Positions 1 to 5,144 of a stretch of DNA of 5,144 bases are shown one piece after another. The stretch is from a virus. Positions within the stretch are counted from its first letter, which is position 1. Each line of letters begins with the position of its first letter. The translations under genes and the position numbers were made by a program. The notes under the pieces were generated by a model. That model saw nothing but the letters and a program-made list of their open reading frames with translations. It was not told the origin of the DNA and made no database searches. The stretch spans positions 1 to 5,144 of IMG/VR virus record IMGVR_UViG_3300045988_129059, one strand, 5' to 3'.

Positions 1-99
1 ATCCGAGGTCCAAGCCTCGGCAGACTCTCCCATAAACTCTTTCCAGTGGCTCCAGCAGAGCCGGGACGGCACATAAAAATAATACATGTCCAAAAAAAG
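1..99. repeat. Terminal redundancy: bases 1-99 are identical to 5046-5144, which is the overlap of a circular genome assembly. The unit genome is 5045 bp.
   Basis: Direct comparison shows 1-99 (atccgaggtccaagcctcggcagactctccc...caaaaaaag) exactly equal to 5046-5144. Confidence 0.95.
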
Positions 100-330
100 A
101 TCATCCATTGGAGGTGTAATCAATGTCTGCAAACGAGTAACAAAAGAGGTCTCAATATCAAACGTATCACCGGGTAAAACCTCATCCAGATAAAACGGGA
201 CAAGATCGCCAACATTAAAAGACGTTTTAACAGAGCTGCTCCGGTCAAACCGTGACCGGGGGCGCTCAATATCTGACTTATACTGACTAAAAAAGCTATT
301 TGCATCAATCAGTTTTTTACTAAATGCCAT
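1..330 (-). CDS. VP1: VP1 N-terminal segment; bases 1-99 duplicate 5046-5144. The true start is the ATG at 330-328 (minus strand), preceded by AAGGA plus 5 nt. Read across the junction the product is MAFSKKLIDANSFFSQYKSDIERPRSRFDRSSSVKTSFNVGDLVPFYLDEVLPGDTFDIETSFVTRLQTLITPPMDDLFLDMYYFYVPSR..., 565 aa in total.
   Basis: Manual translation of the minus strand from 330 runs in frame without a stop through 100 and then 5144 down to 3678. The N-terminus matches the gokushovirus VP1 pattern (FDRS...F..G.L.P...DEVLPGDTF). The 62-aa track ORF at 120..308 is in a different frame and is spurious. Confidence 0.85.
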   Translation of the reverse strand, partial: MAFSKKLIDANSFFSQYKSDIERPRSRFDRSSSVKTSFNVGDLVPFYLDEVLPGDTFDIETSFVTRLQTLITPPMDDLFLDMYYFYVPSRLCWSHWKEFMGESAEAWTSD

Positions 331-429
331 ATCAATCCTTTCCGCCGGACAACATCACAAGTCCAGCAACATTAAGCCCAATATCAAACAATACAAGCAA
401 CACCATAATCAATAACAACACAACCATCA

Positions 430-933
430 CTATTCCTCCTTCGGCTGCTCCTTCGGCTGCTCCTTCGGCTGCTCTTTTGGCTGCTCTTTTGGAGGCTCGG
501 AAGACTGCAAAGTCTTAAGAGCATCCTCAAGATCACCATTAACAAATGACTGCACAAACAAATCAGGGTTATAATCAAACAACTTTTGCACCTCTGCCGG
601 AAACTCGCTAAACTGATCTCTAAACTGCCGTACAGACTGCATAGCATCCACAATACCTTTTGGCATCAAAGACAAATCAACGCAGTTACTCTCATCATAA
701 CCAGTCGGTATCAAACCAGCAGATAACTTATTGATGATAACAGCCATATCACACCCAGGGGCAAAACTGTTAATATAAGCACTAATGTCAACATCACGCA
801 CAGGCTTAAGGCACTTACGTCCATCCTTACCAACAGATAAAGCATACTCAGTACGCATAGTATCACCACAACACGTAGATACGGGTGCAGGATCATTAAA
901 AACATCATACATTGTCAACCATTTTTGGCTCAT
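430..933 (-). CDS. VP3: VP3 internal scaffolding protein, about 167 aa, with a C-terminal (PKEQ)x4-PKEE repeat tail. The start is probably the ATG at 933-931 (MSQKWLTMYDVF...) rather than the track start at 942.
   Basis: GAGAGGTG lies 6 nt upstream of the ATG at 933. The segment QFSEFPAEVQKLFDYNPDLFVQSF resembles Chlamydia-phage VP3 (AFSSLPSDLRNKFHNDPKELLDFI), from memory. Size and position immediately upstream of VP1 fit. The stop is TAG at 430-432. Confidence 0.7.
   Translation of the reverse strand: MSQKWLTMYDVFNDPAPVSTCCGDTMRTEYALSVGKDGRKCLKPVRDVDISAYINSFAPGCDMAVIINKLSAGLIPTGYDESNCVDLSLMPKGIVDAMQSVRQFRDQFSEFPAEVQKLFDYNPDLFVQSFVNGDLEDALKTLQSSEPPKEQPKEQPKEQPKEQPKEE
436..495. repeat. Imperfect tandem 12-nt repeat (ccttcggctgct x3, then cttttggctgct x2) encoding the PKEQ repeats at the VP3 C-terminus.
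   Basis: The periodic 12-mer is seen directly in the sequence, and the VP3 translation ends PKEQPKEQPKEQPKEQPKEE. Confidence 0.85.
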
Positions 934-1198
934 AGTCAGCACCTCTCATCATACTTTTAAGGTCAATCCCATCTTTCTGCGCCTGTAAAATAACATCATC
1001 CATCCAGATCATACCAAGCTCATCCAGCATACCGACGAGCCGAAAACTAAACTCCCTAGGCTCACCACAGGTGATCTGCTTCAGCAACGTTTTAAACGCA
1101 CGCTCTGCCCATACAGGGTCAGGGCAGATATAATACTGCATCACATGACCTGATACATCATCATAAAAAGCATAAATCAAATTGTGTAAATCTTTCAC
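905..1198 (-). CDS. Hypothetical acidic 97-aa protein with a GTG start. Size and slot are compatible with a VP5 (gpC-like) protein, but no motif is recognised.
   Basis: AGGAGG at 1208-1213 lies 9 nt upstream of the GTG at 1198-1196. The GTG overlaps the TGA stop of the upstream basic ORF (GTGA), indicating translational coupling. The 3' end overlaps the VP3 start by about 29 nt, which is typical Microviridae gene packing. Confidence 0.55.
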   Translation of the reverse strand: MKDLHNLIYAFYDDVSGHVMQYYICPDPVWAERAFKTLLKQITCGEPREFSFRLVGMLDELGMIWMDDVILQAQKDGIDLKSMMRGADYEPKMVDNV

Positions 1199-1308
1199 AG
1201 CCTAATACCTCCTCTAAATAACATTGGTCTAACATTCAATTTTTTGGTACGATCGGCAGTTTTCCTAAAAACTTTCCGATCACGTTTCTGTCTCATACGT
1301 TTTGCCAT
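1195..1308 (-). CDS. Small arginine/lysine-rich protein of 37 aa, MAKRMRQKRDRKVFRKTADRTKKLNVRPMLFRGGIRL (translated by hand), J-like (gokushovirus ORF8/VP8-like).
   Basis: The ATG at 1308-1306 is preceded by AGGAGG (1316-1321) with a 7-nt spacer. The protein is 37 aa with about 13 Arg/Lys, and the ...RGGIRL C-terminus is recalled from memory as common in small basic proteins of gut microviruses. It is absent from the ORF track because it is below 60 aa. Confidence 0.65.
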   Translation of the reverse strand: MAKRMRQKRDRKVFRKTADRTKKLNVRPMLFRGGIRL

Positions 1309-1342
1309 GTAACTACCTCCTAAAATTTAATAATACATACAA

Positions 1343-1369
1343 ATTGTATACCGGGGGGGGTATTGTCAA
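1343..1369 (-). promoter_or_regulatory. Candidate sigma70-like promoter for the J-like/ORF97/VP3/VP1 gene block. The -35 is TTGACA (plus 1364-1369) and the -10 is TACAAT (plus 1343-1348), with a 15-nt spacer that contains the homopolymer tract.
   Basis: The viral strand reads cacacTTGACAataCCCCCCCCggTATACAATttg, about 35 nt upstream of the J-like ATG and directly downstream of the rep terminator. Confidence 0.4.
1353..1360. repeat. G8 homopolymer (C8 on the viral strand) inside the promoter spacer.
   Basis: ccgggggggg is at 1351-1360. Confidence 0.9.
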
Positions 1370-1390
1370 GTGTGTTTATACAAACATAAC

Positions 1391-1428
1391 AAAAAACGCC
1401 CTTGTGATACATACGTACCACAAAGACG
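1391..1428 (-). terminator. Rho-independent terminator 4 nt downstream of the VP4 stop: a 14-bp stem (two G-U pairs) with a 4-nt loop, followed by UUUUUU.
   Basis: The viral-strand RNA folds as CGUCUUUGUGGUAC-GUAU-GUAUCACAAGGGCG-UUUUUU, paired by hand. The A6 run is at plus 1391-1396. Confidence 0.7.
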
Positions 1429-1431
1429 CAT

Positions 1432-2457
1432 TTATATATCCGGTCTCACCAACATTTTAGACTGGTGCTCTTTTGCTCGCTCATCAACAAGCAACTGCTC
1501 AAAATAATCAAGTTCGGAAGCAAAATCCTTAACCTGTTGCATCATTTTAGCCGTAGCAACACGGTTTTCGGAAAGCTTTGCATACTCCTCCGGAAAGTCA
1601 ATCTCAAAAAATGGGTCAAAGTAACGAGGGATGGGAGCAACCAGACCGCCCTCTAACTGCACGTATCCATCCTCTAGGAGCTTTTTAGCGTGTAAGTCAT
1701 AGTATTCCTTGCCTATGCCCGGTTTACGGCTCATACGGGTAAATTCGGGGCTTATAGCCATATCCTCATATACGTGTGTATTATCGCCAGTCTGTTTTTT
1801 AAGAATATAACGTGCCACATAAGCGCAGGATTGCCATGTAACACCGGCTACCAAGTTGTAGCCATAAGGCCACAACTTTTGTAAAGACAAACTTGTATAA
1901 TATTTATCACCATTTTTGGAGTATTTTAAAAATTGCAAATCATACTCCTTGGGAATCCAGTCAAACAAAATCAAATGATAATGGGGACGGTGGGACTGCT
2001 CTCCGTACTCACCAGCCAGAAAAAACCGGATTTTGATATCAATGCCTCTATAGTCCTGATCACGGCGGAGCCGTTTAATAAACCTCTGGATATCGTCCGG
2101 GACAAGGGACGGTATACCTTTTGTACCTCGTGGGAGGTGCTCATCATCATACGTAAGTGTTACAAAAAATGCAGACGTGTGGGTCTGTAACTCCAGCATA
2201 AGACGAGTAGCCCAACGCCGGGAATAATCTAAACGGCAACCAATACATTGCCCGCAGGGGATCAAAAAAGTATCTAACTGTCTCCAAGTACCAACATCCA
2301 TCTGATGATCGCTACACTCAAAGACCGACGGATTAGACCTTGACTGATATACAAACGTATTACCAGTCTCAGCTGCTTTAAAAACTTTAACTTGACGTTT
2401 ACCGCTATCTGACTTAGTATGTAAAAAAGCACCTCTGAGTGGATGATAACAAGCCAT
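1432..2457 (-). CDS. VP4: Replication initiation protein VP4 (rolling-circle HUH endonuclease, phiX174 gpA-like), 341 aa.
   Basis: Motif I is FFVTLTYD. Motif II is HYHLILF (HUH). Motif III is AYVARYILKK with two Tyr, which recalls phiX gpA YVAKYVNKK. CGQCIGCR is recalled from memory as a conserved zinc-finger-like element of gokushovirus Rep. GAGAGG lies 7 nt upstream of the ATG at 2457, and the stop is TAA at 1432-1434. Confidence 0.9.
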   Translation of the reverse strand: MACYHPLRGAFLHTKSDSGKRQVKVFKAAETGNTFVYQSRSNPSVFECSDHQMDVGTWRQLDTFLIPCGQCIGCRLDYSRRWATRLMLELQTHTSAFFVTLTYDDEHLPRGTKGIPSLVPDDIQRFIKRLRRDQDYRGIDIKIRFFLAGEYGEQSHRPHYHLILFDWIPKEYDLQFLKYSKNGDKYYTSLSLQKLWPYGYNLVAGVTWQSCAYVARYILKKQTGDNTHVYEDMAISPEFTRMSRKPGIGKEYYDLHAKKLLEDGYVQLEGGLVAPIPRYFDPFFEIDFPEEYAKLSENRVATAKMMQQVKDFASELDYFEQLLVDERAKEHQSKMLVRPDI

Positions 2458-2497
2458 GTAACTACCTCTCAGATTTTTATTTTAGGTGTTTTTGTGT

Positions 2498-2538
2498 CAC
2501 TCAGCCCAGTTACATCAAGTAGGTAACTGGGCTGAGTG
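2498..2538. other. Perfect 16-bp inverted repeat (cactcagcccagttac / gtaactgggctgagtg) with a 9-nt loop. The viral-strand loop reads CTACTTGAT. It is a candidate replication origin or complementary-strand priming hairpin.
   Basis: The arms are exact reverse complements (2498-2513 and 2523-2538). The loop resembles the phiX174 origin nick core CAACTTG|ATA. The element lies about 40 nt upstream of the rep ATG and has no flanking U-tract. Confidence 0.5.
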
Positions 2539-2549
2539 CTAACTACTCA

Positions 2550-2747
2550 CTACTTTGCCAGCAATTTACGCTCATAATAATGCTTTGCATCCAGACACCG
2601 ACAAAGATCCAAAAGCATATTATTAATATAAACAGGCATACAACTACGAGAGTCCCAATTACGCACAGTCGCAAGCGGTATCTCAAATTTATCCGCAAAC
2701 TGCACCTGCGTAAGTCCTAACCTCTGACGAATATCATGTGACGTCAT
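2550..2747 (-). CDS. Small helix-turn-helix DNA-binding protein of 65 aa (XRE family, HigA/MqsA-antitoxin-like HTH). It is a putative transcriptional regulator.
   Basis: LGLTQVQFADKFEIPLATVRNWDSRSCMP fits the HTH pattern ...L.LTQ..FA..FG....TV.NWE.GRR.P, recalled from memory. AAGGAG (2759-2764) lies 11 nt upstream of the ATG at 2747, and the stop is TAG at 2550-2552. The gene has its own promoter and palindromic operator. Confidence 0.7.
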   Translation of the reverse strand: MTSHDIRQRLGLTQVQFADKFEIPLATVRNWDSRSCMPVYINNMLLDLCRCLDAKHYYERKLLAK

Positions 2748-2764
2748 ATATAATACATCTCCTT

Positions 2765-2785
2765 TACTATGTTATAAACATAGTA
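2765..2785. promoter_or_regulatory. Operator-like palindrome tactatgtt-ata-aacatagta (9-bp arms) overlapping the -10/TSS of the HTH promoter. A third ACTATGT half-site at 2801-2807 overlaps the -35.
   Basis: The arms are exact inverted repeats, sited exactly where an autoregulatory repressor site would be expected. Confidence 0.5.
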
Positions 2786-2810
2786 TAGCAAATCTGCAGA
2801 ACTATGTCAA
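2782..2810 (-). promoter_or_regulatory. Near-consensus sigma70 promoter for the HTH gene (and possibly rep). The -35 is TTGACA (plus 2805-2810), the spacer is 17 nt, and the -10 is TATACT (plus 2782-2787).
   Basis: The viral strand reads TTGACAtagttctgcagatttgcTATACT. It begins 5 nt after the VP2 stop and 35 nt upstream of the HTH ATG. Confidence 0.55.
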
Positions 2811-2814
2811 TACA

Positions 2815-3486
2815 TTATCCAAAAATTCTACCCAAAAGTCCAGCGGCACTATTAACCATTGAGCCAATAAAGTTTGCATTTTGTCCACGCTTATCTGTTT
2901 TGGCTTTAACATCTGTACTATACTTATTACCCTTATAAGACTTATTACTAGAGTACTTAGTCGACTGATAAGACATATTAGACGCATATTGACTAGCCGC
3001 ATAATTACGATCGGCACTATACCGGGACGCATTGGCGGATGTCTGCGCCGCAAAGCGGTGAGCGTCAGCCTGCAACTGAGCCGCTTGCAAAGCAGTCTGC
3101 TGAGAGATACGAGCAGCCTCCAAAGTAGCATCCCTCTGCATCTGAGCAATCGCCTGAGCATTTGCATTATTTTGCTGATTAACAATGATCGATGTAAGAG
3201 CCGGGACAACAGATTCATCCACTTTACCAGAGGCACCGGAAGCAGTCGCACCGGAACCAGTCTGAGCACCAGAGCCACCAGCGGCAAGCACCGGGTTAAG
3301 TCCGGCTTTTTGTAAATCCAAAACCTCACGCTGATGAGCAGTGGAGGACTGCTCCGCTTGCCATTGACGATTTTTTTCCGCTTCCGCAGCATTAAATTTC
3401 ATTTCTTCGCGGGCAAATTCCTGAGATTGTGCCGTATTTTTTGCACTAATGTCTGATATTTTATTAAATAATTGATCTTCTGTCAT
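2815..3486 (-). CDS. VP2: VP2 minor capsid/DNA pilot protein, about 223 aa. The true start is probably the ATG at 3486 (MTEDQLFNKISD...) rather than the track start at 3543.
   Basis: GAGGAG lies 9 nt upstream of the ATG at 3486. The segment NRQWQAEQSSTAHQREVLDLQKAGLNPVLAAGG matches the gokushovirus VP2 motif (QREAW...ER.SNTAYQR...D.KAAGLNPILA), from memory. The rest is a low-complexity Q/A/S/G-rich region, and the stop is TAA at 2815-2817. Confidence 0.8.
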   Translation of the reverse strand: MTEDQLFNKISDISAKNTAQSQEFAREEMKFNAAEAEKNRQWQAEQSSTAHQREVLDLQKAGLNPVLAAGGSGAQTGSGATASGASGKVDESVVPALTSIIVNQQNNANAQAIAQMQRDATLEAARISQQTALQAAQLQADAHRFAAQTSANASRYSADRNYAASQYASNMSYQSTKYSSNKSYKGNKYSTDVKAKTDKRGQNANFIGSMVNSAAGLLGRIFG

Positions 3487-3580
3487 AATTTTTTCTCCTC
3501 TAGCACTCCGATCGAGACCGTAAACCAGTAAATTGTTGCACAATTTACAAGTTGACTGTCTCTCTCGTTGAGTGCTTAAT

Positions 3581-3610
3581 GGTAAACAAGGACAGACGCA
3601 CCCGTCTGTC
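3581..3610 (-). terminator. Hairpin with an 8-bp perfect stem (gacagacg-cacc-cgtctgtc), followed on the viral strand by CUUGUUUACC. It is a candidate, probably leaky, terminator about 70 nt downstream of the VP1 stop.
   Basis: Exact inverted repeat at 3591-3598 / 3603-3610 with a U-rich tail on the viral strand. Confidence 0.45.
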
Positions 3611-3665
3611 CCTGCCGTGACATATTATTAATTAAGCAACCAAAAAACTCATTTATTAAGTTTAT

Positions 3666-3686
3666 ATTACAATTTTATTACAATTT
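3666..3686. repeat. 10-bp direct repeat attacaattt x2, separated by 1 nt, spanning the VP1 stop codon.
   Basis: attacaattt is at 3666-3675 and 3677-3686. Confidence 0.6.
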
Positions 3687-5144
3687 ACGCAATCCCGGAA
3701 TACTATGGACAGGCATAACACGGGTCGTAAGGTTTTTAATATAAAAATCACCAAAGATCTGATCGGCAACTTTTGACGTAACCGCAAGAGTACGGTCAAC
3801 ATTAGTCTTATCCTCCTGTATCCAAGATGCAGACAACGTAGGTTTTTGCTGATAATAGTCAGCAAAATGCCAGGACTGCAAAGACTTGTCAATACCAGAG
3901 CGCATCTCACCAGTTACAATACTCGGTTTATAACGATAATCCGCCCAAGCCTCTTGGTAGCCAAACACATCGTCAAGACTGCCAAAACCATCATTGTCAT
4001 AATAAATCTCACGAGTATATACGGGTTGCTCTCCAATATTTGCCAAAATCGGGAAATAATAGTCCAAACGATCTCTACGAGACCACATACGATTAAGACC
4101 CTGCTGATAGGTATGATTATACCGGGCACACATAAGACCGATCACAAAGCCATGCTCCGTAAATGATTTGACAAAACTATTGTCTGTATTATTTGTCAAA
4201 GACATAGCCGCTGTCGTACCAAGAGGGGTCTGACCAGACTCCGACTGCTGGACAATCTGATGCACATTGATACGAGTACGATTAGCAGACAACAGCTCCG
4301 GACGCTGTAAACGTCCATCCGGAGAGATGACACCAAAATGACCTCGTAAAAGCTCAATATAACGACTACCTGAACGGGCATCAGTCTCAAGCATCTGTTG
4401 AGTGGCAAAAGCAAGACGCAAACTATTAACGGTCAAAGCATCAGCCGATGACGTATCACCTACAAGATTATTGGGATAAAATAAACCATAATTATCCTCT
4501 GTAATCTCACCAGTCTGACTACGATCATAACCAAAACCGGAAACATTATTAGGTCTTGATGGCAACTTAGGCGCAAGACCAACCATAACAGGAGAGACCG
4601 TCTTATTAGGCTCAAGAGATCCACCATTAATATTATACATCATCATAGCTGGCTTTTTGCCAGATACAACAGGAGCATCTCTAGTAACAATCGGGATATC
4701 ACCAAACAAAGAGGATATCGTCACATCATCACCTTTCTGCGGCTCGGGCAGTACAGACGTAAAATAATCATGTAATTTATTGACTTTTAAAAGCTTACCA
4801 CCTTTTGCGGAGTTATTAGCATCAAATCTAACATCACCATCATCAGTATCAACCAAAATAGCGTCCTGCAAATTCTCATCCCGAAACCACTCATTCCAGA
4901 TCAGGTTATAAGCATTAATCGGCAGCCGAGAGATGGATAATACTCCACTTGGGTTAACCGGTACTCCAAAATAATCTAAAAGTGATTTTTGGAGCGGCTT
5001 TTTGTCAGATGCCTCATAGATCAACTGTGGGACCTGATAAGTAACATCCGAGGTCCAAGCCTCGGCAGACTCTCCCATAAACTCTTTCCAGTGGCTCCAG
5101 CAGAGCCGGGACGGCACATAAAAATAATACATGTCCAAAAAAAG
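3678..5144 (-). CDS. VP1: Major capsid protein VP1 (Microviridae F-like), C-terminal about 488 codons including the TAA stop at 3678-3680. The ORF continues upstream through the circular junction into 100-330.
   Basis: The 486-aa track ORF contains the conserved Microviridae capsid motif AYNLIWNEWFRDENLQD. The segment MDDLFLDMYYFYVPSRLCWSHWKEFMGES parallels Chlamydia phage VP1 (MDNLRLDTQYFFVPLRLIWSNFQKFCGEQ), recalled from memory rather than aligned. Length and composition are typical of gokushovirus VP1. Confidence 0.9.
   Translation of the reverse strand, partial: LFLDMYYFYVPSRLCWSHWKEFMGESAEAWTSDVTYQVPQLIYEASDKKPLQKSLLDYFGVPVNPSGVLSISRLPINAYNLIWNEWFRDENLQDAILVDTDDGDVRFDANNSAKGGKLLKVNKLHDYFTSVLPEPQKGDDVTISSLFGDIPIVTRDAPVVSGKKPAMMMYNINGGSLEPNKTVSPVMVGLAPKLPSRPNNVSGFGYDRSQTGEITEDNYGLFYPNNLVGDTSSADALTVNSLRLAFATQQMLETDARSGSRYIELLRGHFGVISPDGRLQRPELLSANRTRINVHQIVQQSESGQTPLGTTAAMSLTNNTDNSFVKSFTEHGFVIGLMCARYNHTYQQGLNRMWSRRDRLDYYFPILANIGEQPVYTREIYYDNDGFGSLDDVFGYQEAWADYRYKPSIVTGEMRSGIDKSLQSWHFADYYQQKPTLSASWIQEDKTNVDRTLAVTSKVADQIFGDFYIKNLTTRVMPVHSIPGLRKL
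5046..5144. repeat. Second copy of the terminal redundancy (identical to 1-99).
   Basis: Exact 99-nt identity with the window start. Confidence 0.95.

Follow-up and report, generated by a model that had tools for sequence, protein, structure and literature searches.

A conserved intergenic hairpin with a CTTGAT loop is the probable viral-strand rolling-circle origin of gokushoviruses

We analysed the virus record IMGVR_UViG_3300045988_129059 of IMG/VR (positions 1 to 5,144; the whole stretch of 5,144 nucleotides is called the window below), focusing on a hairpin at 2498-2538, upstream of the replication gene rep, in which an earlier note had seen a candidate rolling-circle origin. The terminal 99 nt of the window are identical, indicating a circular genome of 5045 nt, and every recognisable gene is carried by the minus strand. 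Judged from its sequence, the virus is a gokushovirus-like microvirus, and its nearest public relative is Dulem virus 137 (L001) from lemur faeces, with 72% identity in DNA and in Rep. Given that the packaged DNA of cultured microviruses has gene sense, the minus strand was read as the viral strand. The genes and the parts of the element are as follows (the slash marks a cut here and below).

Minus strand: major capsid protein VP1 (Phage_F, E 1e-119)
Minus strand: pilot-like VP2
Minus strand: scaffold protein of the Chlamydia-phage type (VP3)
2550-2747, minus strand: open reading frame of a 65-amino-acid helix-turn-helix (HTH) protein
1432-2457, minus strand: gene of Rep (VP4), a predicted HUH nickase (Pfam PF23343, E 9e-20)
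2488-2545, minus strand: full conserved origin-like element with 5' flank, hairpin and 3' flank (covariance model R1, 69.7 bits, E 1e-15)
2523-2538, minus strand: 5' arm of the hairpin with the viral-strand sequence CACTCAGCCCAGTTAC, its lower part variable among relatives and its upper CAGTTAC common
2514-2522, minus strand: loop CTACTTGAT with the predicted Rep nick CTACTTG/AT
2498-2513, minus strand: 3' arm GTAACTGGGCTGAGTG, whose first 7 nt, GTAACTG (2507-2513), are conserved as sequence
2494-2499, minus strand: 3' flank motif TGACAC (TGACACC in most relatives), its GAC at +18 to +20 from the predicted nick

The sole Pfam match of the window Rep was PF23343 (REP_ORF2-G2P). BLASTP against gpA of phiX174 gave an E value of 3e-6, with motif 1 and the HUH residues aligned (PHYHLILF versus LHFHAVHF), and the translation contains the two-tyrosine motif YVARYILKK, whose phiX174 counterpart is YVAKYVNKK.

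The sequence at 2498-2538 reads CACTCAGCCCAGTTAC / ATCAAGTAG / GTAACTGGGCTGAGTG, that is, 16-nt arms that are 100% complementary with 9 nt between them, confirming the perfect 16-bp hairpin upstream of rep described in the earlier note; on the gene strand the 9-nt loop is CTACTTGAT. Folded as single-stranded DNA, the hairpin had a free energy of -18.5 kcal/mol (z = -5.2), and none of 200 dinucleotide shuffles folded as well. A scan for perfect hairpins found no other perfect stem of at least 10 bp in the genome, and an Rfam search of the window gave no match. The hairpin starts 11 nt past the stop codon of the HTH reading frame, and 40 nt separate its end from the rep ATG (2457). The 14 nt that join the HTH stop codon to the hairpin (TAGTGAGTAGTTAG, minus strand, 2539-2552) have stop codons in all three frames and are identical in Dulem virus 137 (L001 2804-2817).

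Conservation was examined in relatives fetched through Rep homology alone (34-72% identity; three GenBank phages and 80 IMG/VR genomes), a sample that was blind to the hairpin. Using a covariance model (R1) built from 38 distinct copies of the element, we found the element in 79 of the 84 Rep-retrieved genomes (E<=1e-5). Each genome unit has one copy, and second copies occurred just in concatemer assemblies, one genome length apart. At least three of the five genomes without a match are incomplete contigs: L008 and L010 end short of the region, and L005 starts inside the hairpin loop, so that its match (1-39) is partial. In a scan for perfect stems, the element was the top or near-top hairpin in most relatives and usually the longest of the genome. 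Furthermore, when the loops of all perfect hairpins with stems of at least 8 bp were compared, CTTGA was the commonest 5-mer (60/84 genomes), while the commonest 5-mers from outside the element's own sequence reached 12/84 in the same count. The conserved stem with a CTTGAT loop that the earlier note had proposed to look for in related genomes is therefore present, well in excess of chance, and, as described below, its stem covaries.

The element was also recognised in cultured and more distant phages. Chp2 carries it at 2904-2941 (non-coding, loop TCTACTTGAT, strong model score). That of phiMH2K, which is absent from the model, lies at about 3297-3336 (non-coding, loop with CTACTTGTT) and matched weakly (24.5 bits, E 5e-4), and that of SpV4 at 512-544 (non-coding, loop ATTACTTGTTATA) was recognised by eye. 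The Escherichia coli phage EC6098 (NC_048874) has it in the VP3-VP1 spacer (1672-1729, 51.5 bits), with the nick predicted between G1701 and A1702, so that a directly testable substrate is at hand in a cultivable system. Variants were recognisable in the distant lineages L205, L208 and L209. Placement relative to the genes varies: the element usually lies about 200 nt upstream of rep, and one clade has it downstream, some 1750 nt from the rep start. A blastn search of complete E. coli genomes with a 101-nt enterobacterial copy of the element gave no match.

The exact pattern CTTGATGTAACTG-N7-TGACAC was present in at least 120 viral contigs; among the matches listed (80), all were 3.8-9 kb long, in keeping with microvirus genomes or concatemers of these. 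In bacterial assemblies (596 Gb), 38 matches were found versus about 4 expected by chance, and most of them lie on contigs that also encode a gokushovirus Rep or VP1; the element could thus serve as a marker with very few false positives. Gokushovirus-bearing contigs with the exact 19-base motif came from Negativicutes, Clostridia, Alpha-, Beta- and Gammaproteobacteria, Bacteroidetes and Desulfovibrionaceae. Since the element is common to phages of unrelated hosts, recognition by the phage's own protein is favoured.

We next describe the anatomy of the element. Its consensus is variable lower stem-CAGTTAC-(2-5 nt)-(T or C)(A or T)CTTGAT-GTAACTG-variable lower stem'-TGACACC(AA). In alignment A1, 81.9% of the stem cells were paired, versus 27-40% with slid partners; both sides had changed in 13 of the 16 stem pairs, and the 74 compensatory cells and other observed values were reached by 0 of 500 shuffles. 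Examples of compensatory arm pairs are CACTCAGCC with GGCTGAGTG, GTCCGAC with GTCGGAC, GGGCA with TGCCC and GGGAA with TTCCC. On the other hand, the 3' half is kept as sequence with fixed spacing (CTTGAT-GTAACTG-N7-TGACACC), and GTAACTG is kept even where the 5' arm fails to pair with its first bases; examples are L027, L032, L034 and EC6098. A paired but variable stem together with a conserved 3' half indicates two requirements, one for structure and one for an asymmetric sequence on one strand. In the window the model scored 69.7 bits on the minus strand versus 28.4 bits on the plus strand, the latter from the stem alone, so that about 40 bits come from strand-specific sequence and not from the palindrome.

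A second, small hairpin was seen by eye 2-4 nt upstream of the origin hairpin in many relatives (L017 at about 2822-2835, L020 at about 2019-2032, L033, L075, L216, L251 at 1657-1680, and others). It has a stem of 4-7 bp and often a GAAT(A) or GAAA loop; the structure recurs while the sequence varies, and the window lacks it.

The orientation of the element was then compared with strand composition in the genomes having the element and identifiable rep and VP1 genes. L028 was excluded; its VP1 and rep lie on opposite strands, owing either to misassembly or to a real half-genome inversion. The element was on the gene strand in 180 genomes and on the opposite strand in eight, which represent at least five lineages.

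L068, 2516-2573, strand opposite to the genes: inverted element (one clade with the next three)
L079, 2844-2902, strand opposite to the genes: inverted element (same clade)
L081, 5376-5433, strand opposite to the genes: inverted element (same clade)
L083, 1107-1164, strand opposite to the genes: inverted element (same clade)
L103, 2055-2111, strand opposite to the genes: inverted element
L119, 64-121, strand opposite to the genes: inverted element
L154, 212-269, strand opposite to the genes: inverted element
L166, 709-766, strand opposite to the genes: inverted element

In these eight genomes the AT skew at third codon positions of the coding strand was +0.40 to +0.65 (A-rich), as compared with a median of -0.33 in 176 normally oriented genomes (90th percentile 0.12, one genome reaching 0.40; Mann-Whitney p = 2e-6) and with -0.66 to +0.13 in their nearest normally oriented relatives by VP1. 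Note that whole-genome skew gave no clear signal, which emerged with third codon positions, more inverted cases and the nearest-relative comparison. Dulem virus 207 (L212) has a weak minus-strand model match at 2718-2775 (E 0.04), and its skew, computed afterwards, was +0.51. phiX174 (-0.58), Chp2 (-0.31) and SpV4 package their T-rich strand. Given that the skew flips with the inversion, the T-rich strand follows the element and not the genes, as expected if the displaced and packaged strand is determined by the element or has to carry it. Compared with close relatives, an inversion was detectable for the element alone. With the detectable inversion confined to this stretch of about 50 nt, a specific minus-strand origin may either be part of the element as well or not be needed in its presence. 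We tentatively suggest, at somewhat less than even chances, that the orientation of the element sets the displaced and packaged strand and that about 4% of the element-bearing gokushoviruses, in at least five independent lineages, are inverted and package the non-coding strand. If this is true, they would be the first negative-sense Microviridae, and such flips, if confirmed, would change the textbook view that microviruses package the coding strand.

Among the closest known origins is the 30-nt origin of phiX174 and G4 (Bullavirinae), which is cut by gpA. In NC_001422 the rep_origin of phiX174 is annotated at 4306, directly after CAACTTG, the origin being CAACTTG/ATATTAATAACACTATAGACCAC. The window loop matched phiX174 CAACTTGAT at 8 of 9 positions, in agreement with the earlier note, and the nick heptamer differs by one base; the loop of L042 carries the exact CAACTTGAT. 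Aligned on the cut, the gokushovirus consensus CTACTTG/ATGTAACTG-N7-TGACACC has in common with phiX174 the nick core ACTTG/AT, T at +4, A at +6, T at +8 and GAC at +18 to +20. This GAC, part of the conserved TGACACC, stands in the register of phiX174 GACCAC, a similarity that is short. In origins of the phiX174 type a downstream binding (key) sequence stands about 18-23 nt past the nick. The initiators are homologous (HUH with a two-tyrosine YVA(K/R)Y motif), and both origins lie on the gene-carrying strand. GTAACTG and the variable stem of the gokushovirus element occupy the place of the phiX174 AT-rich spacer, and the covariance model run on phiX174 gave no match. According to work of Baas, van Mansfeld, Fluit and Jansz in the 1980s, the phiX174 30-mer reportedly has three parts: a recognition sequence at the cut, a spacer rich in AT, and a binding sequence on the right. 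On this scheme, the gokushovirus element would have the first and third parts in register, with a hairpin arm replacing the spacer. The element would link the phiX174 origin evolutionarily to hairpin-type rolling-circle origins.

Other nick-like motifs in the window are not conserved. CAACTTG occurs at 3548-3554 on the gene strand, as the earlier note had stated when naming it as an alternative nick site, and it is CAACTTC in the closest relative, Dulem virus 137, which speaks against that role. Likewise, neither CAACTTG at 1852-1858 nor AACTTGAT at about 1507-1513 (in rep) is conserved there. The CAACTTGAT found in L004 lies within VP1 coding sequence that is not shared.

The double-strand origins of rolling-circle plasmids of the pC194/pUB110 family and of actinomycete integrative elements have the identical nick hexamer, CTTGAT, often in an unpaired part of a hairpin, and the idea of a nick site presented in a single-stranded loop applies to them too; they differ from the window element in the Rep family (PF23343 being the only match of the window Rep), in the flanking recognition sequences and in belonging to plasmids, not viruses. 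pC194-type plasmids encode a separate Rep family. The CTTGAT nick site of pC194-family plasmids, and its position in unpaired parts of hairpins in the related integrative elements, have been described (PMC2440964), and the pC194 origin sequence is given in PMC7072734. The origins of CRESS-DNA viruses, whose circular single-stranded DNA encodes a Rep (geminivirus, circovirus and nanovirus), are similar in the GC-containing stem, the nick site in a loop near rep and the HUH Rep. However, their nonanucleotide NANTATT/AC (NANTATTAC) is absent from the window loop CTACTTGAT, so that the CRESS-like architecture suggested in the earlier note stands as a resemblance of layout and does not extend to the loop sequence. 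Unlike the window Rep, CRESS-DNA Reps have one tyrosine and a superfamily 3 (SF3) helicase domain (PMC6668415). A repeat scan of the window, which did not cover the relatives, found no iteron-like repeats.

These results suggest that the hairpin is probably the viral-strand rolling-circle origin of gokushoviruses, nicked by Rep at CTACTTG/AT in the loop; the candidate origin of the earlier note is thus supported on comparative grounds, by conservation, covariation, alignment with the phiX174 origin and orientation-linked skew. In the window the nick is predicted between the minus-strand bases at 2516 and 2515. In the proposed mechanism, the inverted repeat would extrude in the supercoiled double-stranded replicative form, exposing the loop CTACTTGAT as single strand. 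Rep (VP4), the two-tyrosine HUH enzyme and gpA homologue, would recognise CTTGAT-GTAACTG and the TGACAC about 18 nt downstream, cleave the G/A junction (CTACTTG/AT) and remain joined to the 5' A. The 3'-OH would be extended by the host polymerase and the element-carrying strand displaced. After one round, the second tyrosine would cut the regenerated hairpin, and the displaced strand would be circularised and packaged.

Several points weigh against this interpretation. All the steps of the mechanism are inferred, and the support is comparative. In L206, L207 and L211, large distant microviruses of 5.8-6.3 kb, the model found no element. The +1 base is not universal: the sequence is CTTG-TT in phiMH2K and SpV4, and CTAGAT is found in one clade. 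The phiX174 origin has no hairpin, has an AT-rich spacer and lies inside gene A, whereas the window element is an intergenic 16-bp hairpin. Skew ties the element to the packaged strand and by itself cannot separate a plus-strand from a minus-strand origin. It is moreover an imperfect marker, since some normally oriented genomes have A-rich coding strands (phiMH2K, +0.39; L159, +0.47; L074; L165). To our knowledge, packaging of the non-coding strand, which the inverted cases need, is unknown in Microviridae.

The element would be one more rolling-circle origin of a known type, in which the loop of a hairpin carries the CTTGAT nick site. We found neither a prior description of the element nor any assignment of a gokushovirus origin in the searchable literature, although an older remark in the original Chp2, phiMH2K or SpV4 papers is possible. 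The main comparative papers (Roux 2012; Kirchberger and Ochman 2020; Kirchberger 2022) mention neither origin nor hairpin. The conserved element of about 45 nt, with its predicted nick, offers a natural zero coordinate for circular gokushovirus genomes. Viromes of gut, marine and soil samples have yielded thousands of Microviridae genomes, the majority of which belong to gokushoviruses and their relatives.

The alternative that survives best, albeit as an unlikely one, is a complementary-strand origin: on the incoming single-stranded DNA, host RNA polymerase, primase or PriA would recognise the hairpin, and minus-strand synthesis would be primed there. The stability of the hairpin and its non-coding place on the packaged strand suit this role, conserved loop motifs are also known in plasmid single-strand origins, and the orientation-skew link fits any signal required on the packaged strand. 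However, such an origin gives no reason for the nick motif of phiX174 and pC194 or for a downstream motif in the phiX174 register. The same sequence is moreover found in phages of Chlamydia, Bdellovibrio, Spiroplasma, E. coli, Negativicutes and other hosts, whose priming systems differ, and a separate long imperfect hairpin (about 75 nt) is present at 3502-3576, downstream of the capsid gene. In phiX174 and G4 the minus-strand signals are located downstream of the capsid gene. Complementary-strand priming is therefore less likely than an origin nicked by Rep, although a dual role as viral- and complementary-strand origin is possible and would help to explain the viability of a short inversion.

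Hairpins of other small microviruses have been tentatively read as complementary-strand signals. The reekeekee- and roodoodooviruses have conserved intergenic hairpins (Olo Ndela et al. 2022, PMC9865509) that resemble the present one, as judged from their description, in lying upstream of rep or between cap and rep and in having compensatory stems and a conserved loop; they belong to other clades. The authors tentatively proposed minus-strand priming and did not tie the hairpins to the phiX174 nick motif (PMC9865509).

The long imperfect hairpin belongs to the VP1-VP2 spacer, which on the minus strand contains the imperfect hairpin of about 75 nt (3502-3576 in the window) and a terminator-like GC hairpin (3586-3615); in Dulem virus 137 (L001) the spacer hairpins lie at 1734-1761 and 1772-1842. 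Many compensatory changes preserve the shape of the long hairpin in Dulem virus 137 (z -6.7 and -8.9), and this hairpin is a candidate for a complementary-strand origin or a regulatory structure of VP2.

A role at the RNA level between rep and the genes upstream of it, whether as a transcription terminator, an attenuator or a stabiliser of 3' ends, appears very unlikely. The hairpin does sit between a reading-frame stop and the rep start, its stem would form in mRNA too, and phiX174 mRNAs end at intergenic hairpins. On the other hand, no intrinsic terminator with a GC-rich stem and a T/U tract was found on either strand in a scan of 2380-2900, and a T-tract is absent after the hairpin on both strands of the window and from the flanks in relatives, upholding the earlier view that this is not a canonical terminator. 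In addition, a terminator needs neither a sequence-conserved loop and 3' flank nor a 3' arm conserved beyond pairing, the element is not tied to one place among the genes (usually upstream of rep, in one clade some 1750 nt downstream of its start, and in EC6098 in the VP3-VP1 spacer), and in eight genomes the element is inverted with a matching flip of composition.

Equally improbable is a double-stranded operator for a dimeric regulator, be it the HTH protein or Rep in autoregulation. A perfect palindrome adjoining the HTH gene just upstream of rep would suit an operator; however, the element occurs without an annotated HTH gene in Dipodfec virus RodF1_66 (L002), Chp2 and EC6098. Its arms vary freely while pairing is kept, the opposite of operator behaviour, and the conserved part is an asymmetric loop and flank, with no -10 boxes following TGACAC. 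TGACAC was also considered as the -35 box of a rep promoter and rejected, as -10-like hexamers were not enriched at 16-18 nt in 180 elements. Finally, the HTH gene has a palindrome of its own, TACTATGTT-ATA-AACATAGTA (2765-2785), which overlaps the strong promoter-like site TTGACA-17-TATACT upstream of the gene (2782-2810) and probably serves as the operator of this gene. Regulator genes are unusual among microviruses; in the window, as in Dulem virus 137, this one is inserted between VP2 and rep.

An attachment site for integration, through dif-like XerCD recombination or otherwise, can practically be set aside: there are temperate gokushoviruses, and we did find integrated copies, but the junctions of the integrated L007, L009, L012 and L013 (compared with the circular L011) lie about 250 nt away, leaving the hairpin internal, and the dif motif of EC6098 is annotated at 1-28, as against 1672-1729 for the element. 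The integration junction itself is a dif-like 11-6-11 palindrome, ATTGAACAAAA-TGATAT-TTTTGTTCAAT, about 250 nt downstream of the hairpin.

L007, 2266-2293: 11-6-11 junction palindrome
L012, 3931-3958: 11-6-11 junction palindrome
L013, 252-279: 11-6-11 junction palindrome
L009, 25-56: 11-6-11 junction palindrome
L011, about 3998-4030: 11-6-11 junction palindrome

Half elements in bacterial chromosomes were considered as junctions made by Rep, an idea that was rejected: two were spacers of clustered regularly interspaced short palindromic repeat (CRISPR) arrays, about four were chance or coding matches, and three are unexplained. The two spacers, which match the element's right half (TACTTGATGTAACTGG...TGACACC), lie in Natronospirillum operosum (L230, about 3534-3567) and Marinomonas arctica 328 (L231, about 6936-6967), in arrays with two different repeats, GTCGCGCCCCACGCGGGCGCGCGGATAGAAAC and GTTCGCCGCCGAGCACGCGGCTTAGAAA; they therefore link marine gokushoviruses to Natronospirillum operosum and Marinomonas arctica. 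Solo right halves, TACTTGATGTAACTG-N7-TGACAC, were seen in Clostridia chromosomes from metagenome-assembled genomes (L218, about 7687-7715; L219, about 4801-4829, downstream of rplL; L234, about 4817-4845), with no complementary 5' arm, CRISPR repeats or nearby Rep or VP1, and in greater number than chance predicts.

Two full hairpin elements in the same orientation, 1618 nt apart, were present in L245 (2810-2835 and 4428-4453). They adjoin a tyrosine-integrase fragment and a duplicated gene for a membrane protein of about 115 amino acids, with no Rep or VP1 match in the 8-kb stretch; a degraded prophage is conceivable for this locus, as is a satellite-like element. Lastly, the C-terminus of VP3 in the window ends in a (PKEQ)n tail encoded by five copies of a 12-nt tandem repeat (434-498).

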